A DNA stretch of 64,000 nt, taken from assembly GCA_044344255.1 (NCBI GenBank), contig JBIJDH010000023.1:75396-139395 (forward strand). Direction: 5' to 3'. Made by a program: the position numbers and the translations under genes. How positions within the stretch are numbered: the stretch's first letter is position 1; each line of letters opens with the position of its first letter. Under the pieces are notes generated by a model. The model searched no databases. It was not told the origin of the DNA and saw only the letters and a program-made list of their open reading frames with translations. Source of the stretch: Myxococcota bacterium (GTDB lineage: Bacteria; Myxococcota_A; UBA796; UBA2385). This document shows, piece after piece, positions 17,863 through 31,854 of this stretch.

Positions 17863-19611
17863 TCAGCCAGACAGGCCGACGAGCCCGACCTCGGCGCGCG
17901 GGCGCATGGGGTAGTGCTCCCCGCCCTCCGCGCCGGCGTAGCGCGGCTTGGATTGTACGAGCCGCTCCAGATCGTAGGCGAAGGCGGGGCGAAGGGGGGC
18001 AGGGGCCTGGCTGCGACCCCAGGCGTGCATGCGGCGCTGCGCGGCGAGCGATCCGTCGTGGTACTGGCGCAGCACGTCGGGCAGGTTCAGCGGCGCGGGC
18101 GAGACCGGGGAGGCCGCGAAGGTGTCCGAGATGGCGCCCACGGCGGCCAGGGCCTCCATCTGGCCCGCCTCGACGCGGTCGGCGATGCCGGTGAGCTGGT
18201 CGAAGAGGGGGTCGAACTCGGGGAGGTCGGGGGCGAAGGAGCCGGGGACCGCGCAGGTGTCGAGCGCGGCGAGGTGGGTCTTGTCTCCGGTCTCGAGGTA
18301 GCGGAACAGCGCCCCCGAGATGCGGCTGCCCGAGAGGTGCCAGGAGAGGAACCAGACCTTCGACCAGGCCCGCCAGAGGTCGAAGTGGCGGAAGGAGACG
18401 TAGGAGCCGTGGATGAGCCGGTCGTTGTAGTCGAGGATCCCCTGGTTGAGGCGGTCGATGTGGGCGAAACGAGCGGCGGACAGGTCATTCTCATCGAGCG
18501 CCGAGAGGAGCGTGGCCGCCACCTGGTTTACCACCTGCAGCGAGTTGGCCATCCCGCGGGAGAAGAGGGCGTCGATCGCGCCAGCGGCGTGGCTCATCAG
18601 GCACCAGCGGTCACCCACGGTGCGCTTCGAGGAGAACTGGGTGCGGGGGGTCGAGACCCAGTTCCAGACAGGCCGGGCGTCGGCGAACTGGCGCTGGACC
18701 GCCGGAAAGCGGGTGAGGAAGGCGTCCCACTCCTGCTGCGGGGTGATGTCTGTCGGCCGGGGGGAGCGCCGGCTGTCGAAGCTGAGCCCGACGCTGCAGA
18801 GGGGGTTGGTGCTCTTGTCGTGGTTGTCGAAGGGGATCACCCACATCCAGCCGCCGTCGAAGATGTGGTGGAGCGTGCCCTGGTGCCAGGCCGTGGGCTG
18901 GCCGCCGTGGTCCACACACTCGTCGAAGGGGCGCACGCCGACCATGTGGGTGAAGAGCGTGCGGGAGTGGGTCTTGAAGCGGGCGGGCTGCTCGCGGAGA
19001 TCGAACTGCTGCGCGAGCACTGAGTTTTGTCCGCTGGCGTCGCAGAGGTAGCGGGCGCGGACGGTCTCTCCGCTGGCCGTCGAGAGGGTGACCCCGTCGG
19101 CCCCGATCTCCACGCCGCTCACGCTCGTGCGTTGCATCGCCTTCGCGCCGTATCGGATAGCGGCGTAGAAGAGGTGGGCGTCGATGTCCTGGCGGTGCAG
19201 GTGCATCTCGGGACCGAAGGGGAAGGCGGAGACGTTACACTGTGTGTTCTGCTCCGGCCGGTGCTCCACCCCCTCGCGGTGATAGGCGAAGCCGAAGTTT
19301 TTCTTTACGCCGCAGTTCCCGCTCACGTTGGCGCGGAGCTCGTCGATGGAGCTGCACTGCCAGATCTCCGGCACGTCGTATCGACAGGCCATGAGGCGCA
19401 TGAGGTAGCTCGTCTCCCCGATGGTCGACTCTCCGAGCGCGAAGCGGGGGTGCATGCCGTTGTCGATGAGGACGACGGAGAGCCCCTTGCGGGCGAGGAT
19501 GCAGGCCAACATCGACCCTGCGATGCCGCTGCCGAGGATCGCGACGTCGGCCTGGGGCCCGCGGGAGGTGGAGGGGGTGAGCGTGGGAGAGGGCGCGGTC
19601 TCGGCGGACAT
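17863..19611 (-). CDS. Flavin-dependent halogenase (PrnC-like FADH2/O2-dependent halogenase)
   Basis: GSGIAG FAD motif, HPRFALGEST, GVKKNFGF (conserved Lys region), GWMWVIPF halogenase signature, IDALFSRG; GGAG RBS before ATG 19611. Confidence 0.85.
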   Translation of the reverse strand: MSAETAPSPTLTPSTSRGPQADVAILGSGIAGSMLACILARKGLSVVLIDNGMHPRFALGESTIGETSYLMRLMACRYDVPEIWQCSSIDELRANVSGNCGVKKNFGFAYHREGVEHRPEQNTQCNVSAFPFGPEMHLHRQDIDAHLFYAAIRYGAKAMQRTSVSGVEIGADGVTLSTASGETVRARYLCDASGQNSVLAQQFDLREQPARFKTHSRTLFTHMVGVRPFDECVDHGGQPTAWHQGTLHHIFDGGWMWVIPFDNHDKSTNPLCSVGLSFDSRRSPRPTDITPQQEWDAFLTRFPAVQRQFADARPVWNWVSTPRTQFSSKRTVGDRWCLMSHAAGAIDALFSRGMANSLQVVNQVAATLLSALDENDLSAARFAHIDRLNQGILDYNDRLIHGSYVSFRHFDLWRAWSKVWFLSWHLSGSRISGALFRYLETGDKTHLAALDTCAVPGSFAPDLPEFDPLFDQLTGIADRVEAGQMEALAAVGAISDTFAASPVSPAPLNLPDVLRQYHDGSLAAQRRMHAWGRSQAPAPLRPAFAYDLERLVQSKPRYAGAEGGEHYPMRPRAEVGLVGLSG

Positions 19612-19644
19612 TCGGTGCTCCGGAACGGGGGTGCGCCGTGTCAT

Positions 19645-19660
19645 TCCAAGAACTGTGCCA
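19645..19660 (-). promoter_or_regulatory. Possible sigma-54-type promoter for the halogenase
   Basis: TGGCACAGTTCTTGGA: correct GG-N10 spacing but -12 is GG rather than GC. Confidence 0.4.
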
Positions 19661-19822
19661 GCGCCTCCGTCGCCCCCGCCTCGTCGGCCCTGCCTCCGCT
19701 CGGCCCCGAGCGGTGGTGGGGAGAGGCTGGAGCAAGCAGGGGATCTGCGCAGGGTGGGGCCGTGCGCGCGACCGGATCCCCCCGTGCGGGCGGATGAGCG
19801 GGCCCGTGGGGGCCCAGTGCGC

Positions 19823-19865
19823 CCGCGCATCGGCCGCGCATCGGCCGCGCATCGGCCGCGCATCG
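19823..19865. repeat. 11-bp tandem repeat (CCGCGCATCGG) x about 4, intergenic
   Basis: Read directly from sequence. Confidence 0.85.
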
Positions 19866-19927
19866 AGGGCCCCGGTCGAGGCGCACCCACTCCACCCCGT
19901 GGCTGGGCAGGTGGGAGAGGTTGCGGT

Positions 19928-20812
19928 TCACTCTGCCACTTGCCAGATCTGGACCTCGCCGCGGCTCTGGGTGGGGTCGGGGTCCCACGTGCCCGCGCCC
20001 ACCACGACGCGTCGGCCGTCGGGGCTGAAGGCCGCTGCGGTGATCGCTTGTCCCGCATAAAAGCCAGAGATCTCCGACCCGAAGGTGGCCGACTGCGAAT
20101 CGGCGTTCCACAGGCGGACGCTCCCGTCATCCGCTGCCGTGAGCATCCACCGGCCGTCGGGCGAGAACGATGCGGCTCGCACCCAGCCAGTGTGTCCTGT
20201 CAGCGTGCAAAGCAGAGTGCCGTACCTCGGCGAGTGTGGGTCGGCATCCCAGAGGCGGGCGGTGTTGTCACCGGGCCCCGTCAGCAGCCGTCGGCCATCG
20301 GGCGAAAACGAAGCGGCAAGGACGGGCCCCCTCTCCCCGACGTCAAGGCCAGGGAGCTCCTGCCCGAACGTGGCCGACTGCGGGTCGGCATTCCAGAGGC
20401 GGGCGGTGTTGTCATTGCTGCCCGTGAGCACCCGCCAGCCATCCGGGGAGAACGATGCGACGCTCACCGATCCAGTGTGCGCCACGAGCGTGCGGAGCAG
20501 CTTTCCGTACGTTTGGGAGCTTGGGTCGGCGTCCCACAAGCGGGCGGACTGGTCGTCGCTGCCCGTCAGCACGCGCTGGCCGTCGGGCGAAAACAGAGCG
20601 GCAGATGGATAGCTGGTTTGCCCTTCCAGCGTGCGGAGCGCGCGGGGCTGGGCGAGGAGCTTCAGGGGTGGCACATCCGCCCGGTGCGTGGGCTCGACTT
20701 CGGCCCCAGCGATGGGCAACTCGGTCACCGGGGCTTGTGGTTCGCGGGTGCACTGAGGAAGCACGGCAACCAGGAGGACGCCGATCAGGAGCAATGCCAA
20801 TCGTCTCAACAT
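19928..20812 (-). CDS. Exported WD40-repeat protein
   Basis: Signal/lipobox VLPQC; four similar FSPDGxRxLT..DxxARLW(D/N)AD repeats plus a fifth degenerate repeat. Confidence 0.85.
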   Translation of the reverse strand: MLRRLALLLIGVLLVAVLPQCTREPQAPVTELPIAGAEVEPTHRADVPPLKLLAQPRALRTLEGQTSYPSAALFSPDGQRVLTGSDDQSARLWDADPSSQTYGKLLRTLVAHTGSVSVASFSPDGWRVLTGSNDNTARLWNADPQSATFGQELPGLDVGERGPVLAASFSPDGRRLLTGPGDNTARLWDADPHSPRYGTLLCTLTGHTGWVRAASFSPDGRWMLTAADDGSVRLWNADSQSATFGSEISGFYAGQAITAAAFSPDGRRVVVGAGTWDPDPTQSRGEVQIWQVAE

Positions 20813-20847
20813 GGTCTCAATGCGGTCTTCGAAGCCAGCTCACCCGC

Positions 20848-22320
20848 TCAGGGCTGGCGGTCAAACACGAAGGTGACGTAGTAATTCTCGTCCGGGTCGA
20901 GCCCGGACGGGAAGGTCGCGGCGGCCATGGCGTCGTTCACGCACTTCACGATCACCTCGTCGTCGAGCACCTCCTCTGCCAGGCAGGACTCGACGAGCTT
21001 CCCATCGTGGTCGATGGAGAAGTGGAGGCCGACCTCGCCGGAGAGCGCGGGCCGCTCGGTGAGGCGGCCAGCGTAACAGTGCGCCACCGCGGGCAATTGG
21101 CGCCGCAGCTCGGCCGAGAGCTGCTCCGGGTCGGCCTGTTGGCCCTCCAGGCTGGTGGTCAGGGCGAAGGGAGGGCGGAGCTCGTTCCTGGGCCCGACAC
21201 GGACGTCCACGCCCTCTCCGGCGAGGCTCACGCGGCCGCGGGGGGCGGCGGAGTCACCGGGGCCGGAGTCGGCGGCGCTGACGCAGGCGATGGCCGTGGT
21301 GAGGCTGAGGGCGACGCAGGCGGCGAAGCTACGGGAGCGCGCGCTCCAGGGCTCGCGGGGGAGGCCGACCGCGAGCACGCGGAGGATGCGGGCCTCGGTC
21401 GAGCCCGGCTCGACCATACAGACCGCGCCGGCCCGGACGAGGGGGTGGCCGGTCAGGCTGCGGGCGACAGCCAGCAGCTCGGCGGCGTATCGAGACGCGG
21501 GGACGCCGACCTGGAGCACGAGGTCGTCGGCTGCGTGCTCGCGCTCGACGCGCAGCGCGGCCGCCGCCCGCCAGGCCAGCGGGTTCCACCAATAGAGGGC
21601 GGTGAGGAGCTGTGCCGCGAGCTGGATCCGGTTGTCGTGCCGGGCGACATGGCCGAGCTCGTGGAGGAGGACCGTCCGGAGGCGCTCGGGATCCCAGGCG
21701 TCTGCCGCGGCGGGGAGCAGGACGACGGGGCGAAGGAGCCCGAGGGTGAGCGGCACGCCGGCCTCGGCGCTGCGCAGCACGGGGACCGAGCCGCGGAGGC
21801 CGAGGATCTCAGCGGCCGCGAGGGCGGCGTCTGTCCAAGCGGTGGGCACCCGTGGATCGGCGCCCTCACGGAGCCGGCGCGCGGCGCGGTGGCCCCGGAT
21901 GACCCGGGCCGAGACGAGCACGGTCCCGGCTGCCCACGGGAGCGCCAGCCAGGAGAGCCACGGGAGGCCGGGCGGGAGGGCCGGCGACCGGACCGGAGAG
22001 GCCGACGCTGCGGTCCAGCCGCTGGCCGAGGTCAGCGACGCCGATGGGGGTGGCGACGCGGAGGTCTTTGCCCAGTCGGCCGCGCCGGTCACCGCGGGGA
22101 TCGGCAGCGTCGGGAGCCCGAGGGACAGCACGGGCACGAGGAGGGCAGAGGCCACGCCGAGGGCCCAGACCCGGTGGCGGGCCCCCGCTGAGCCTCTCCG
22201 CAGGAGCGCAGCGGCGCAGGCCGCCGTCGCGAGGACGAAGGTCGCCTTGAGGGCGACAGAGCAGAGGGTGATCATCGCAGGCTCCGAGGGGAGGAGGTGG
22301 TTGAGCGAGGCGTCCATCAT
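20848..22320 (-). CDS. M56 family metallopeptidase (BlaR1/MecR1-like) with C-terminal AgmX/PglI-like (TonB-C-like) domain
   Basis: RHRVW, HELGH zinc motif, YWWNPLAW, EHAADD; C-terminal HCY...LSGEV..F.I..DG...C..A.FP. Confidence 0.88.
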   Translation of the reverse strand: MMDASLNHLLPSEPAMITLCSVALKATFVLATAACAAALLRRGSAGARHRVWALGVASALLVPVLSLGLPTLPIPAVTGAADWAKTSASPPPSASLTSASGWTAASASPVRSPALPPGLPWLSWLALPWAAGTVLVSARVIRGHRAARRLREGADPRVPTAWTDAALAAAEILGLRGSVPVLRSAEAGVPLTLGLLRPVVLLPAAADAWDPERLRTVLLHELGHVARHDNRIQLAAQLLTALYWWNPLAWRAAAALRVEREHAADDLVLQVGVPASRYAAELLAVARSLTGHPLVRAGAVCMVEPGSTEARILRVLAVGLPREPWSARSRSFAACVALSLTTAIACVSAADSGPGDSAAPRGRVSLAGEGVDVRVGPRNELRPPFALTTSLEGQQADPEQLSAELRRQLPAVAHCYAGRLTERPALSGEVGLHFSIDHDGKLVESCLAEEVLDDEVIVKCVNDAMAAATFPSGLDPDENYYVTFVFDRQP

Positions 22321-22697
22321 CGGCCTTCCTTCCGGGCCTGCTCGATGAGCCCGGCGATCCGCTCGAGCTCCGCGGCGTCGAGGCGGTCGCGAGAGACATC
22401 GAGCAGGGCCGCGACGGCATCTTCTGTCGAGCCGCCGAAGAAGGTGTCGAGCATGGAGGTGAGCGCAGAGCGGCTGGCCTTCACCCGAGAGACCACCGGG
22501 GAGAAGACGAAGCGCGGGCCGCGCTCCTCGTGGCGGACATGGCCCTTCTCCTCGAGGATGCGCAGCAGGGCGCGCACGGCGGAGTTGGAGGGAGGGTCAG
22601 CCAGCCGCTCGCGCACCTCGGCGGCCGTGAGCCCCTCGGCTCCATACAGGATGTCCAGGATCTCTCTCTCACGGCGGCTGAGGGGCGGTGTGCTCAT
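22317..22697 (-). CDS. BlaI/MecI/CopY family transcriptional repressor
   Basis: LSRREREILDILY, VRALLRILEEKGHV, FFGGS motifs; ATGA overlap with the M56 gene. Confidence 0.92.
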   Translation of the reverse strand: MSTPPLSRREREILDILYGAEGLTAAEVRERLADPPSNSAVRALLRILEEKGHVRHEERGPRFVFSPVVSRVKASRSALTSMLDTFFGGSTEDAVAALLDVSRDRLDAAELERIAGLIEQARKEGR

Positions 22698-23555: not shown

Positions 23556-23693
23556 CTACTTTCGGCTGTCTTCCTTCCCGCTCTTGACGTCGGACTCCCC
23601 GCGACCGGCGATGATGCCCGTGCGGACGACGAGCTCGACCTTGGCGGCGCCGCGGGCGAAGAAGGGGCGGACGGTCGGGGTGGTGCTGGACAT
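23556..23693 (-). CDS. 45-aa peptide with graspetide/microviridin-leader-like PFFAR motif
   Basis: MSSTTPTVRPFFARGAAKVELVVRTGIIAGRGESDVKSGKEDSRK; GGAG 6 nt upstream; sigma-54 promoter upstream and hairpin downstream. Confidence 0.7.
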   Translation of the reverse strand: MSSTTPTVRPFFARGAAKVELVVRTGIIAGRGESDVKSGKEDSRK

Positions 23694-23780: not shown

Positions 23781-24044
23781 GGTCGGTCGGAGGGCGCAGG
23801 CGCGGGGAGGCGCTCGGTGGTCGCGTGCTTTCGGGGCGCAGGTCTCCTGCCGCGGGGGCGGCCCGGCGCGGCGCGCGCACGCCGGCGCGAACGGGGGGTG
23901 AACGGCCCGGCGCGGTTCAGGCGCACGTCGCGACGCCCCTCGTCCGGTTTGGGCAACAAAAAGCACGGGTGACGGTGACGGGACGGCGCGGCCTCTGGGG
24001 GCCGACACCCGTGTCAGGGCACAGGCGGCGGGTTAGGTCGCCCC

Positions 24045-25577
24045 ATGAGCCTGCTGACCGAGATTCGCCGCTGCCTGGCTGACACGCCCCACTTCGGCTC
24101 GCTCGGGGTGGAGTCGGCGCACTGGCGGCGAGTCGCCTTGGAGGCGCTGCAGCGTCGGGCGGCCGGTGGGGTCCCTCCCGCTTCGGAGGAGGTTGCCCGC
24201 TGGCTCAGCACGGTCGAACCGGCCTGGACCTTCGCGGCCCTCGCAGCGGCGGACTTGCGGGAGCTGCTCGACGCGCCGACCCTGGTAAAGTCTATTGAAG
24301 AGGCGATTCGTATTGCCCTGCGCCTTGATCCAGTCGGGCTCGATCCAGTCCTCGATCCGCTTCTTCGAGGTCACCTCTCTGGCTGGCAGCAGGCCCACCT
24401 CCGTCAACATACGTCCGAAGGCGCGGTAGGGGTGTGGGTGGCGCGGGACACGCCCCAGTACCTGCGGGAGGTGGGACTGGTCGTTGATTCGCCGGCCCAA
24501 ATCACCGCAGCGGGGGCGCACCTCCTCCGCCTTCGAGACTCAGACGCGGTGGCCTTTCTCCTCGCGTTGGAGCTCGTACAGGCGGAAGACTCCGAGGACC
24601 CCTGGCGAATGCATGTGCGGGATGCCCTCGATCTCTGTCAGCACCCTGTCCAGCGCTGGAGGATGGATGGCCCGGACGATCTTCCCTCGATGCCGCTGGC
24701 GGTGCTCTATCGACTGAAGGCGCTGGAACTGGGATACACAGGGTTGGATTTTTCCGACGAAGAATACGGCTGGGCCGAGGGCATCGTGCTGACCGATCGT
24801 GGTCGCCGCATCCTCTCCACCTTGGTGGGCACTCCCGAGCCGGCGGTCATGAGCCTCGCCCGCGCCATGGTCGCCGATGCTTCTGCGACGAGGCCCACCC
24901 TCGCCGCCGGCTCCACCGTCGCGGTGGATGCGACCGTCCGTCACGCCGCCATGGTCGCCCACGAGCTTCACAACCTCCTCCTGCCCATGCGGAAGTCCCT
25001 CGAGCGCATTCACCTCGGCCTCGAGGGCTCACCGGAGCGTCCCGTGCTCGGACGGGACCTCGACAAGCTTGGCCAGATCGCGGACCGGCTCGAACGTTTC
25101 GCCTCCGAAAATCGAGAGCTCGCCGCGCAAGCCTCCGCCGCCCCGGGTCGATTCGACCTCGCATCCGCGCTCCGCGACGCCATTGCGCAGGAGAGCCTCG
25201 ACACCCCTTTCGACGAGGCGAGCGCCGCCGGGCACCCGCTCGACGGGCCGCGCCAGCGCTTCGTCCTGTCCATCGCCAACCTGCTGCGCAACGCCGTACA
25301 GAGCCGCGCCGGGGAGCCCGTCTCCATCGCGCTCGCGGTGCAGGTTCGCGGCAGTGCCGTGGTCTTGCACATCGACGACGACGGCCCCGGCGTGCCCGAA
25401 GCGCTGCGGCGTCGCATCTTCGACAATGGGATTCACCTCCGCCCGGATGGGACGGGCCACGGTCTCTCGGTGGTGCGCCAGGTGGTGGAGCGGGAGATGA
25501 AGGGCTCCATCACCTGCCTGCCCCGGCCCGGCGGCGGCTCCCGCTTCGAGCTGCGCCTGCCCCGCGCGGAGGACTGA
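24045..25577 (+). CDS. Cytoplasmic sensor histidine kinase with unusual N-terminal region
   Basis: H-box AHELHN, N-box NLLRNA, G1 DDDGPG, G2 GTGHGL; no transmembrane segment seen. Confidence 0.88.
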   Translation: MSLLTEIRRCLADTPHFGSLGVESAHWRRVALEALQRRAAGGVPPASEEVARWLSTVEPAWTFAALAAADLRELLDAPTLVKSIEEAIRIALRLDPVGLDPVLDPLLRGHLSGWQQAHLRQHTSEGAVGVWVARDTPQYLREVGLVVDSPAQITAAGAHLLRLRDSDAVAFLLALELVQAEDSEDPWRMHVRDALDLCQHPVQRWRMDGPDDLPSMPLAVLYRLKALELGYTGLDFSDEEYGWAEGIVLTDRGRRILSTLVGTPEPAVMSLARAMVADASATRPTLAAGSTVAVDATVRHAAMVAHELHNLLLPMRKSLERIHLGLEGSPERPVLGRDLDKLGQIADRLERFASENRELAAQASAAPGRFDLASALRDAIAQESLDTPFDEASAAGHPLDGPRQRFVLSIANLLRNAVQSRAGEPVSIALAVQVRGSAVVLHIDDDGPGVPEALRRRIFDNGIHLRPDGTGHGLSVVRQVVEREMKGSITCLPRPGGGSRFELRLPRAED

Positions 25578-25579
25578 CC

Positions 25580-26485
25580 ATGATCCCTCGTGTACTCGTG
25601 ATCGATGATGATGCGCTCTTCGCTGACGAGCTGCTCCTGATCCTCGCGCAGGAGGGCTACGAGGCCGAGATCGCGACCTCGACCGAGAGGGCTCGGGAAC
25701 ACCTTCGCGGTGCCCATTGGGATGTGGTCCTCCTGGACCAGCGTCTCCGAGGCCCCCACGGGCCCGACGACGGACTCGACCTCCTCCCCGAGGTGAGTCG
25801 CCTCTGCCCCGGCGCCCGGACCTTCATCGTGACCGGCTTCGCCCACCCGGGGCTCGTCGTGGAGGCGTTCCGCCTCGGGGCGGTGGACTACATCGAAAAG
25901 AACGACATCCTCGAGCCCATCTTGCGGGCCCGCCTGCGAAACCTGACCGAGGGGCAGGCGGAGCGCCGACTCGGGCAGGAGGCCGATCCCCAGGCCGCCC
26001 TCCTCGCCTGCTGGGCTTCGACCCAGGGAGAGGCCGATCCGCACCGCCGCGGACGCCTGCTGGAGGAGCTGATGAAGCGTCTCTTCCAAGGGATCCCCGG
26101 CTTCGCGCGTGTGGAAGCGCGAGTTCGAAGTCGTACCGGGGAGATAGACCTCGTGTTGGAGAACCACAGCCCTGACCCCTTCTGGTTTCACTTTGGGCCC
26201 TTCCTCATCGTCGAGTGCAAGAGCTGGACAGCAAAGGTCGGCTCGCCCGAGGTCCATGCGCTACGGGGCAAGATGGTCGCCTACGGCGGTCGTGCGGGGG
26301 TCGCCCTTCTCGTGGCCCCCGGCGGCTTCACCAGCGCCGCGGAGCCCGCCACGCGGGAGGGGCGGGTCCACACGCTGATCGGGCTCATCGGGCGAGAAGA
26401 GCTCGTTGCATTGGTTGAGGCCGGGCCTGTGCGCCGGCTGGAGCTCTTGGGTGAGGCCCTTCGGCGGGCCAGCCTCGGGGCTTGA
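25580..26485 (+). CDS. Response regulator receiver fused to Mrr-type (PD-(D/E)xK) restriction endonuclease domain
   Basis: REC: VIDDD, LLD(phospho-site), VTG, YIEK. Nuclease: GRLLEELM..LF, GEIDLV, IVECKSW, VG..EV, LLVAPGGFT. Confidence 0.85.
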   Translation: MIPRVLVIDDDALFADELLLILAQEGYEAEIATSTERAREHLRGAHWDVVLLDQRLRGPHGPDDGLDLLPEVSRLCPGARTFIVTGFAHPGLVVEAFRLGAVDYIEKNDILEPILRARLRNLTEGQAERRLGQEADPQAALLACWASTQGEADPHRRGRLLEELMKRLFQGIPGFARVEARVRSRTGEIDLVLENHSPDPFWFHFGPFLIVECKSWTAKVGSPEVHALRGKMVAYGGRAGVALLVAPGGFTSAAEPATREGRVHTLIGLIGREELVALVEAGPVRRLELLGEALRRASLGA

Positions 26486-28366: not shown

Positions 28367-29038
28367 CTATCCCGCCTCCGGCTCACCCCGCCGTCCTGTC
28401 CCCGGCCGGTCTGTCGCGAGGTCTGCGGGGGTCAGCGCACCCTCGGGGTCGAGGCGCCAGGTGCGGTGGAGCGGGGCGCGGGTGCGCACGGCGGCGTGAA
28501 CAGACTGCAGAGCGGTGGCCGCGGCGGCGCGGGCGGCGGCGTTGTCGGCCTCCACCTGGGCGGCGAGGCGGGAGAGGGCCTCGGCGCGGTTGTCGCGCTG
28601 GCTGCGCTGGCCGGCGGCGCGGACGGCGCGCCCGGAGTCGGGATCGACGGCGCGCACGGCGGTGGAGCGCTTGTTCACGTTCTGGCCGCCCGGGCCGCCC
28701 GCGCGGGTGGCGGTGATCTGCACCGCCTCTGGCCGCAGCCGGTGCTCTGCGGGGGGCTCGACCCGGGTGACCGACACGAACCACCGCTTTCGTTGGCCGC
28801 GGCCCCGAAGGGGCGCCACCAGGGCGTGGGTGCCGAGCCAGTCGCTCGCCTCCGCGCCCGGGGGCAGGGGCAGGCGCACGGAGGTGGGGGCCGGGTCGGC
28901 GAGGTCGAGGGCGAGGCCGAGCGCGGCGGCGACGTGTCGGGCGAGGAGGGCCACGAAGCGGCGGACCTCGATCGGGCCGCGGCCGGCGCTGAAGAGGAGA
29001 GAAGGGCCGCTGTTCATCGGAGCGTCCGGGGGCTTCAT
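28367..29038 (-). CDS. prfH: Peptide chain release factor homolog PrfH
   Basis: SAGRGPxE, RKRWF, RAGGPGGQNVNK (GGQ), RSQ..N; ATGA-coupled to an RtcB gene. Confidence 0.82.
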   Translation of the reverse strand: MKPPDAPMNSGPSLLFSAGRGPIEVRRFVALLARHVAAALGLALDLADPAPTSVRLPLPPGAEASDWLGTHALVAPLRGRGQRKRWFVSVTRVEPPAEHRLRPEAVQITATRAGGPGGQNVNKRSTAVRAVDPDSGRAVRAAGQRSQRDNRAEALSRLAAQVEADNAAARAAAATALQSVHAAVRTRAPLHRTWRLDPEGALTPADLATDRPGTGRRGEPEAG

Positions 29039-30249
29039 CGTTTCACCGTGAGGACGGGCCGCAGGGCGGCCACGCGGGCGGCGGCGCCGAAGGAGACCAG
29101 GGCATCGACGACGGGCTCGACGTCCTTGTAGGCGTCGGGGTGCTCTTCGTAGAGGAGGGCAGGGTCGTCACAGATCACCCGGCCGCCGAGGGCGGTGCGC
29201 TGCAGCGAGGCGCGGGTGTGGCGGGCCTTGACCTTGGCGCTGGCCTCGGTGCGGGTCATCTTTCGGCCAGCGCCGTGGGCCACCGAGGAGAGGGCGCCCG
29301 GATGGCCGAGGCCGCGCATCACCCAGGAGTGGGCGCCGCGGCTGCCGAGGACGACGGTGAGCTGGTCGGCCTCGGCGGGGGCGCAGCCCTTCCGGTGAAG
29401 GTAGGCGGGCTGTCCATCGAGCGTGATCGGCACCACGGTGTTGTGGACGAGGTCGAAGCCGCCCCCGATCTTGCTGCTGCGGGCCGCCCCCAAGGCCGTG
29501 AGCATCTGCCAGGCGAGGAGGAGGCGGTTCGCGCGGGCGTATCGAACGGCGCCGCGCAGCTCGGCCCTCCAGGCGTCGATGGCCGGGCCCTGGAGCTCAT
29601 CGTCGCTCCAGCGCGCGGCCAGCGCCGCGCCGAGGCCGCGGGAGCCCGAGTGGGCGAGGACCGCCATCCCGCCAGCGACGAGGCCGGCCCGGGCTGCGGC
29701 GGCCTTGTCGAGCACCCGCTCGACGAGGCTCGCCTCCAGGAAGTGGTTGCCTCCGCCGGTGGTGCCGAGCGCGCGGCCGAAGGCCTCCGCGTCGAAGGTC
29801 GCCGGGAAGGGGGCGCTCGGGGGCTCGTCGTCGTCGGGCTCGGCGGCGCAGCGCTCGGCCAGGGCCTCGGGCAGGCCCTCGAGCGTGAGGAGGCCGCGGG
29901 GGCCGGCTTCCCAGGCGGCCTGGCAGAGCGCGGCCGGGGAGAGGTCGGGCAGGACGGGGCCCAGGGTGGCCTCGCGGGCCCGGCGCTCGAGGGCGTCTCC
30001 GCTCATCGAGACCTTGGGCAGGCCGATCAGGCGGGCGCCGCAGCCGGCGTCGCCGCCGATCAGCCGCGGCCGGACGCGGTCGGCGAAGGCGACGGCGACG
30101 CCGATGGGGGCGTGCAGTCCGGCGTGCAGGTCGGGCATCCCGACCGCGCAGAGGCAGCCGGGGAGGGTGGTGAGGCGATCGAGCTGACGGAGGGCCTCGC
30201 CCTCCATCCAGACCGCGGGGCCGCTGATCAGGGTGGCGTGTGTTTCCAT
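29035..30249 (-). CDS. rtcB: RtcB family RNA ligase (PrfH-coupled RtcB2 type)
   Basis: GMPDLH, GGDAGCG, GGGNHFLE, HSGSRG, HN, HRKG, HGAGR, EEHPDAYK. Confidence 0.9.
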   Translation of the reverse strand: METHATLISGPAVWMEGEALRQLDRLTTLPGCLCAVGMPDLHAGLHAPIGVAVAFADRVRPRLIGGDAGCGARLIGLPKVSMSGDALERRAREATLGPVLPDLSPAALCQAAWEAGPRGLLTLEGLPEALAERCAAEPDDDEPPSAPFPATFDAEAFGRALGTTGGGNHFLEASLVERVLDKAAAARAGLVAGGMAVLAHSGSRGLGAALAARWSDDELQGPAIDAWRAELRGAVRYARANRLLLAWQMLTALGAARSSKIGGGFDLVHNTVVPITLDGQPAYLHRKGCAPAEADQLTVVLGSRGAHSWVMRGLGHPGALSSVAHGAGRKMTRTEASAKVKARHTRASLQRTALGGRVICDDPALLYEEHPDAYKDVEPVVDALVSFGAAARVAALRPVLTVKR

Positions 30250-30261
30250 GCCGAACCTTGT

Positions 30262-30277
30262 TGCAGGCTCCATGCCA
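30262..30277 (-). promoter_or_regulatory. Sigma-54 promoter for rtcB-prfH
   Basis: TGGCATGGAGCCTGCA with GG-N10-GC spacing, between rtcB and the divergent activator. Confidence 0.72.
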
Positions 30278-30354
30278 GCCCTGTTCATGGGCGCTCTCGA
30301 CGAGCGGTGGTGCGGTGCGCACCAGGGATCGGCGGTGCGTATTACACCAGCCCG

Positions 30355-31854
<1,500 letters not shown>

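Follow-up and report, generated by a model that had tools for sequence, protein, structure and literature searches.

We describe a two-gene unit in which a soluble histidine kinase is encoded directly ahead of a receiver domain fused to an Mrr-type nuclease domain, and which probably forms a self-contained immune module whose DNA cleavage would be activated by phosphorylation. The unit occupies positions 24045-26485, plus strand, of a 64,000-nucleotide (nt) stretch of a Myxococcota bacterium genome (assembly GCA_044344255.1, contig JBIJDH010000023.1, positions 75,396 to 139,395), referred to below as the window. The phosphorelay core of the sensor kinase and the active-site motif of the receiver-nuclease are intact, the two genes are translationally coupled, the pair has inserted at varied sites, and its sensor turns over rapidly. 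Homology searches place the pair in a conserved family that is apparently undescribed as such. A preliminary description, made from the letters of the window alone, had noted the same unit and read it as a candidate phospho-activated defence system; the observation itself is confirmed, and sequence comparison lends partial support to the interpretation.

Architecture of the kinase and receiver-nuclease

In the list of open reading frames (ORFs), the histidine kinase (510 amino acids, aa; 24045-25577) and the receiver-Mrr_cat nuclease (301 aa; 25580-26485) are separated by a 2-nt gap, and the flanking genes lie on the opposite strand. The same locus was recovered in an independent assembly of a different lake sample, from which it differs 23 times across 3.5 kb. 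Homologues of the pair point to a myxobacterium as the probable host. The kinase core consists of a DHp-like (dimerization and histidine phosphotransfer) region at 24915-25139, recognized by residue conservation, and a catalytic domain of the HATPase_c family at 25140-25577 (Pfam PF02518, E 2e-18) that contains the N, G1, F and G2 boxes. The phospho-acceptor is His306 (codon 24960-24962), and the other boxes were located at N412/N416 (N), D445-G447-G449 (G1) and G471/G473 (G2). HATPase_c was the sole Pfam family matched on the kinase, HisKA not being matched; H306, N310 and P314 were invariant in 26/26 aligned kinases. No transmembrane helix was found in the kinase, whose top 19-residue hydropathy mean (1.48) falls within the ATPase domain. 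A closely spaced gene pair with a cytoplasmic kinase bearing H, N, G1 and G2 boxes, as first described, was thus recovered. In the 90% cluster to which the kinase belongs, the eight further members had substitutions only in residues 43-285, apart from H306Y, which two of them carried.

The receiver domain (25580-25954; Pfam PF00072, 55.7 bits against a cut-off of 30.2) carries D9, D10, the phospho-acceptor Asp53 (25736-25738), T85 and K107. It is followed at 25985-26485 by the Mrr_cat domain of the PD-(D/E)xK type (PF04471, 47.4 bits against a cut-off of 21), with E162 (26063), D190 (26147), E212 (26213) and K214 (26219-26221). A profile search of 50%-identity representatives returned 173 proteins at E <= 1e-30, and 83 of the best 150 covered both domains. 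Within these 83 two-domain homologues, D53 was conserved in 81, K107 in 79, E162 in 78, D190 in 82, E212 in 81 and K214 in 79, and all four catalytic residues were present in 33/33 rows of the winged-helix kinase family. The claimed fusion of a receiver to a nuclease-type domain therefore stands, and the phosphorelay and catalytic residues proved to be conserved in homologues.

The AlphaFold2 model of the receiver-nuclease was confident (predicted local distance difference test, pLDDT, 94.8) and showed two alpha/beta domains; the receiver gave a structural match with Z 20.7 and a root-mean-square deviation (rmsd) of 1.4 over 121 residues. Modelling bore out the two-domain organization and went no further, as receiver domains filled the match lists of fold searches with the whole model. 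Sequence searches with the nuclease part found no solved relative, and the predicted nuclease fold is assigned from Pfam, the motif and the Atlas. Mrr_N was not matched at E <= 1, and the PADLOC model mREase_IV matched weakly (E 0.012). Complex prediction of a homodimer scored 0.14, with the mark at 0.42, and was counted neither for nor against.

A hypervariable sensor with predicted winged-helix modules

Residues 1-290 of the kinase (24045-24914) comprise, according to a structural model (pLDDT 76) and to structural and profile matches, a helical N-terminal part followed by winged-helix-like modules, the loops of which are acidic and hypervariable. A profile of the sensor core retrieved MarR and PadR winged-helix proteins from the PDB, the best of them a MarR protein at E 7e-4. 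The best structural match was TFIIH p52 (Z 8.4, rmsd 4.4, 129 aligned), which employs winged-helix modules for protein contacts. Further matches were ribosomal small-subunit chains (Z 7.1), the FokI recognition region (Z 6.4, rmsd 4.9, 168 aligned), PadR/MarR proteins and BrxA. Pfam gave no family for the sensor core of the query and scattered single matches among 25 rows; Foldseek gave no match at E <= 0.001; the Atlas gave no feature match, and its structure matches had template-modelling scores of 0.41 by query at most. A single-sequence search from the sensor recovered its own cluster only.

Two sensor loops, aa 200-217 and 230-250, showed a mean pairwise identity of 13-16% and varied in length. 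Both are 21% Asp/Glu and 11-12% aromatic, and their net charge is negative in 22/30 and 26/30 sequences, respectively. The putative recognition helix has a conserved Arg, and the first winged-helix module is slightly basic. Judged by these loops, a protein-binding surface fits better than a DNA-reading one. The net acidic charge of these variable winged-helix loops casts doubt on foreign DNA, which the preliminary description named as a possible cue.

The sensor diverges far faster than the remainder of the pair. P0192 and P0193 share every residue from the linker through to the C-terminus; their sensors are 54-82% identical. At the same site in two Nannocystis genomes (L012 and L013), the receiver-nuclease is 96%, the kinase core 77% and the sensor 50% identical. 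Between these genomes the synonymous divergence (dS) of the kinase ranges mostly from 0.5 to saturation, three flanking genes having values of 0.12-0.24, and the nonsynonymous divergence (dN) of the receiver-nuclease is 0.01-0.04. Given a kinase dS several-fold above that of the flanking genes, allele exchange or old polymorphism would account for the divergence. The A/T-rich codons pointed out earlier were seen as well: the G+C content at third codon positions (GC3) of the kinase, 0.81, is the third-lowest among 47 called window genes (median 0.92) and drops to 0.67-0.68 in parts of the sensor region. Low sensor GC3 was also seen in 24/24 loci set against their neighbours.

Conservation, distribution and mobility of the pair

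A kinase of the winged-helix family lies directly upstream of the receiver-Mrr fusion in 27/27 other genome loci (L003, L011-L031, L033, L037 and L092-L094; L091 is a duplicate of L024, and L032 and L095, with the nuclease part only, were excluded), so that the conserved co-occurrence of kinase and fusion expected at the outset was observed. In the reverse test, the sensor profile matched six of 401 genomes, five of which held the fusion; the kinase of the sixth was degenerate, lacking both the H box and a partner. The identities of kinase core and partner were correlated (Spearman 0.74 over 210 pairs, which are not independent), and the stop and start of the two genes overlap in 24/26 loci. 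At L110:7707-9449, a winged-helix sensor is joined to a degenerate kinase in which a proline-rich stretch replaces the H box, with no receiver-nuclease adjoining.

The pair is rare, being present in 1/60 relatives and in 5/400 sampled genomes of the phylum. The winged-helix form was recovered only from Myxococcota or same-phylum genomes, one deltaproteobacterial bin and unassigned contigs. In the Atlas, proteins with a receiver plus Mrr_cat form several clusters (62-127 members each), and Bacteroidota members are listed there. With the patterns used, viral contigs gave no full receiver-Mrr gene and two nuclease-only matches, and no full receiver-Mrr gene was found on plasmids. Another 400 genomes, from the phylum of L036, gave no fusion at E <= 1e-32, the matches covering one domain only.

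In five Archangium/Pyxidicoccus genomes the pair adjoins five different gene sets, and the kinase was absent at 12/12 orthologous sites from these five plus one further genome. At L014, presence versus absence of the pair amounts to a precise 2.76-kb block. No transposase or third gene accompanies the pair at the loci scanned, and the pair, from its genomic distribution, behaves as a solo cassette. The neighbour scan covered 132 of 300 called neighbours, the nearest two or three genes per side at 28 loci; PADLOC matches to Ser/Thr kinases, HTH, AAA and generic methyltransferase domains were disregarded as unspecific. No methyltransferase co-travels with the pair, methyltransferases occurring at 2/28 loci and unlinked to it. 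In two Archangium loci, REP-like (repetitive extragenic palindromic) repeats immediately precede the kinase (L014:8240-8345 and L011:3175-3235) and recur elsewhere; they may be a sign of mobility.

Decayed alleles and the probable direction of the switch

Several loci retain the receiver-nuclease next to a defective kinase or none. At L024, a receiver-nuclease with all key residues stands beside a kinase that has lost the sensor and the H box; at L121, an intact receiver-nuclease stands beside a kinase fragment; and at L112, an intact one has no kinase nearby. L032 has lost kinase and receiver through a deletion of about 1.85 kb, and L037, L093 and L094 are split or truncated, although some of these breaks may be assembly errors. 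The kinase-less and broken-kinase loci, together with the H306Y alleles, suggest that the unphosphorylated receiver-nuclease is tolerated and hence that phosphorylation may be what activates it.

Relatives of the nuclease domain under other sensors

A metagenome scan yielded 80 loci, 19 with the full receiver-Mrr fusion. The kinases at these 19 were of the winged-helix type in nine, cut by the contig end in five, a fragment in one, missing in one, and equipped with other sensors in three. At L115:767-5909, a 1422-aa NACHT-HEAT histidine kinase is followed by receiver-Mrr, a PfkB kinase and a MazEF pair; L124 has receiver-Mrr then PfkB, in the same order. A HEAT-kinase partners the receiver-Mrr at L156, and a membrane kinase and an extra receiver gene accompany it at L113. 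L127 encodes a one-component NACHT-HEAT-Mrr protein that groups with three receiver-Mrr proteins (support 100/99). The nuclease domain was also found in a Schlafen-receiver-Mrr fusion (P0109, 464 aa), in dCTP deaminase-Mrr and dCMP deaminase-Mrr fusions (L158:6329-7444 and P0159), fused to ParA and, as a degenerate copy, flanked by a receiver and a PNP domain (P0160, 684 aa). These relatives, which sit in immune architectures, accord with the earlier statement that Mrr-like nuclease domains serve as effectors of anti-phage systems. Six of seven nuclease-only loci, a hand-picked sample and not a count, adjoin defence-type genes (NurA plus Uma2, AIPR/Z1/DUF4420, type I restriction-modification (R-M), SIR2, nSTAND5 and HerA). 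In a tree of 71 nuclease domains, the winged-helix group was not resolved as a single supported clade. At L160, L161, L162, L164, L167, L170 and L173, two adjacent ORFs (roughly 300 and 176 aa) encode one distant and one close relative of the nuclease domain, and neither receiver nor kinase is present.

Proposed mechanism and alternatives

We propose that the winged-helix sensor would bind something that an invader produces inside the cell, a phage or mobile-element protein being a likelier ligand than DNA. Next, the kinase would autophosphorylate His306 and pass the phosphate to Asp53, a step that established two-component biology leads one to expect between such partners. Phosphorylation of Asp53 would relieve inhibition of the Mrr-type domain, or assemble it, and this domain would cut DNA with little specificity, so that the infection is aborted. 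The unphosphorylated receiver-nuclease would be off by default, and sensor alleles would be swapped to follow changing targets with the nuclease kept constant. In this scheme we infer which ligand is bound, how the nuclease is activated and what DNA is cut. A wider version is conceivable, if rather doubtful: the pair would exemplify a family of myxobacterial pattern-recognition kinases in which repurposed winged-helix modules form a hypervariable surface for binding proteins, its alleles being recombined onto a constant kinase and nuclease. It would belong to a phosphorelay form of NLR-like (nucleotide-binding, leucine-rich-repeat receptor-like) immunity in which NACHT-HEAT and HEAT kinases serve as interchangeable sensors and which can collapse to a one-component NACHT-HEAT-Mrr protein.

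Several results weigh against an immune module. Enrichment in defence islands, anticipated in the preliminary description, was not seen: a defence system was among the nearest genes at 1/28 loci (type III R-M at L024, where the kinase is broken), and the nearest neighbours are mostly housekeeping genes. An orphan methyltransferase lies near the pair at L014. PADLOC models matched 0/26 members of the kinase family, and PDC-S02 matched the nuclease weakly (6/28, best E 2.7e-6). Structural matches of the sensor lie at Z 5-8, near background, and therefore support winged-helix modules and no particular family. Rapid sensor evolution is common in ordinary kinases, and positive selection is unsupported, as dN/dS exceeded 1 in 1/11 windows with dS high throughout. 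H306Y is known from protein records of contig assemblies and was absent from the differences listed in four sequencing runs; we can only infer that such an allele has an intact nuclease partner. Finally, genes flanking the pair have no receiver match, that is, no stand-alone receiver of the DtcB type as in Detocs, the tested defence system compared below.

The same switch might answer a cue that does not come from an invader: in a myxobacterium with its multicellular life, signals of stress, development or kin conflict might set off programmed death or the degradation of DNA. Such a role would suit the near-confinement of the winged-helix form to Myxococcota-type genomes and the housekeeping genes around the pair. 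However, a core developmental switch is expected to be stable, and a pair found in just about 1-2% of sampled genomes, often broken or deleted and with a hypervariable sensor, makes this role rather unlikely. It is also improbable that the winged helices read foreign or modified DNA in a type IV-like, non-abortive restriction. FokI, PadR/MarR and BrxA among the sensor matches, the conserved Arg, the slightly basic first module and the lack of a co-travelling methyltransferase all speak for DNA reading, but the variable loops are rich in Asp and Glu and net negative, the top match uses such modules for protein contacts, and HEAT and NACHT sensors substitute elsewhere.

We give equally little credence to a selfish addiction cassette with inverted logic, in which constitutive phosphorylation would keep the nuclease silent until the kinase is lost or inhibited. 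A two-gene unit with its own apparent promoter at many sites and the precise presence/absence block at L014 agree with that behaviour; the intact receiver-nucleases that survive without a working kinase (L024, L121 and L112) and the existence of H306Y alleles would seem not to. An ordinary regulatory pair, whose nuclease fold would merely bind DNA or protein, appears very improbable. Databases label some members plain response regulators, and catalytic residues have decayed in two homologues, P0160 and P0136, yet the four catalytic residues are complete throughout the kinase family and each is kept in nearly all of the 83 representatives.

If the pair is indeed a phospho-activated immune module, it would offer a minimal two-gene test of phosphorylation-gated DNA cleavage, the mechanism proposed for Shedu type 1F and for Detocs of the restriction endonuclease (REase) type, of which the accessible parts of the reports cited below describe no test. 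It would also add a defence family that guilt-by-association would miss, because the pair sits among housekeeping genes. To our knowledge, phage defence in the phylum Myxococcota has been little studied. The natural sensor alleles on identical kinase cores are ready reagents for finding the sensed ligand, and a nuclease wired to a standard phosphorelay could serve as a programmable kill switch in laboratory strains. What adds to the interest is that the sensor is hypervariable, that kinase-dead alleles occur in nature and that NLR-like kinases are interchangeable.

Surroundings of the pair in the window

A possible -10 element of a leaderless promoter lies directly ahead of the kinase (24033-24044, plus strand); it is one base off TANNNT and was scored as no match. 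A TANNNT motif 4-12 nt ahead of the kinase start was found in 12/24 loci, against 26/290 other genes and 2/96 shifted controls. Expression of the kinase was considered on the strength of one 248-nt RNA contig (depth 3.3) from one metatranscriptome and was set aside as too weak, DNA carry-over being possible.

The gap upstream of the kinase contains a 45-aa ORF (23556-23693, minus strand), single-copy in the genome, with a GGAG ribosome-binding site; it may resemble the leader peptides of precursors of ribosomally synthesized and post-translationally modified peptides. Further upstream (17866-22697) are a BlaI/BlaR1-type pair of repressor and M56 peptidase, a WD40 protein and a flavin-dependent halogenase-like gene. 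Downstream, an RF-1-domain gene and rtcB on the minus strand are divergent from an RtcR-like sigma-54 activator (28370-31851) and form an RNA-repair locus. This locus lies 2 kb from the pair, and none was seen among the scanned neighbours of other loci.

Comparison with known systems

The type IV restriction enzyme Mrr has an Mrr_cat catalytic domain and no cognate methyltransferase. The pair resembles it in both respects and differs in carrying a receiver in place of the N-terminal Mrr_N. Assignment of the kinase family to Detocs DtcA, to Shedu or to a PADLOC candidate was rejected.

In the literature searched, with subscription papers mostly outside it, no publication was found that describes a receiver-Mrr_cat fusion paired with a winged-helix kinase, and the accessible parts of PMC7159879, PMC13092281 and PMC12839542 do not describe the pair; a figure legend of PMC13092281 names TPR, HATPase and REC among predicted systems. 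What follows on published systems likewise refers to the accessible parts of the cited reports. Ambrosia is a five-gene phage defence system that joins a two-component module to a type IV-like nuclease, with control proposed at the level of expression and not through a receiver-nuclease fusion (bioRxiv 10.1101/2025.09.30.679545). The pair shares with it the coupling of a two-component module to a nuclease; the adenine methyltransferase, XRE regulator and separate HNH nuclease of Ambrosia are not found among the nearest genes of the window pair. Mrr-like effectors occur in bNACHT25 (bioRxiv 10.1101/2022.07.19.500537) and KpAvs2 (PMC11564622), and a receiver is listed among NACHT architectures (bioRxiv 10.1101/2022.07.19.500537). 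There, as may be the case here, an Mrr-like nuclease stands under a pattern-sensing module, and the same nuclease clade appears in NACHT-HEAT-Mrr and behind a NACHT-HEAT kinase. Unlike those proteins, the pair would act by phosphotransfer between two proteins, and the window kinase has no STAND NTPase.

The preliminary description named no characterised system of this architecture. A lack of precedent for the logic is not supported, given Detocs, which is tested, and Shedu type 1F, which is predicted. In Shedu type 1F, a receiver-DUF4263 nuclease is often encoded beside a histidine kinase (39 instances), and phospho-activation has been proposed (bioRxiv 10.1101/2023.08.10.552793). An N-terminal receiver fused to a PD-(D/E)xK nuclease and an adjacent kinase are common to both; the nuclease of the pair is Mrr_cat, with no match to SduA_C, the DUF4263 family of Shedu. 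The SduA model of PADLOC matched receiver residues 3-98 only, and 0/28 nuclease domains matched SduA models.

In Detocs (DtcA-DtcB-DtcC), a kinase with a TPR sensor is combined with a stand-alone receiver and a receiver-effector fusion; the effector is PNP in 80% and a PF18742 endonuclease in a minority, its defence depends on its His and Asp, and its detection rule calls for all three genes (bioRxiv 10.1101/2023.01.24.525353). Both systems have a soluble sensor kinase with a conserved His and an adjoining receiver-effector fusion with a conserved Asp; a further likeness is the swappable effector, which in Detocs has a minority REase form. P0160, with its receiver, degenerate Mrr and PNP domains, links the effector pools of Detocs and of the Mrr type. 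The differences lie, besides the stand-alone receiver, in sensor, effector and host range. Across the 132 neighbours at 28 loci, receiver matches occurred only in an NtrC-type regulator (L025) and a 1315-aa protein (L029). The kinase has no TPR family at E <= 1, its sensor modelling as winged-helix-like. The effector is PF04471, with none of the PNP, PF18742 REase, TOPRIM or membrane hydrolase families of Detocs at E <= 1, and the host range is Myxococcota-like, unlike that of Detocs. The pair probably works like Detocs but lacks three of its defining features, and it was therefore not filed as Detocs. The logic that the two appear to share is itself not new.

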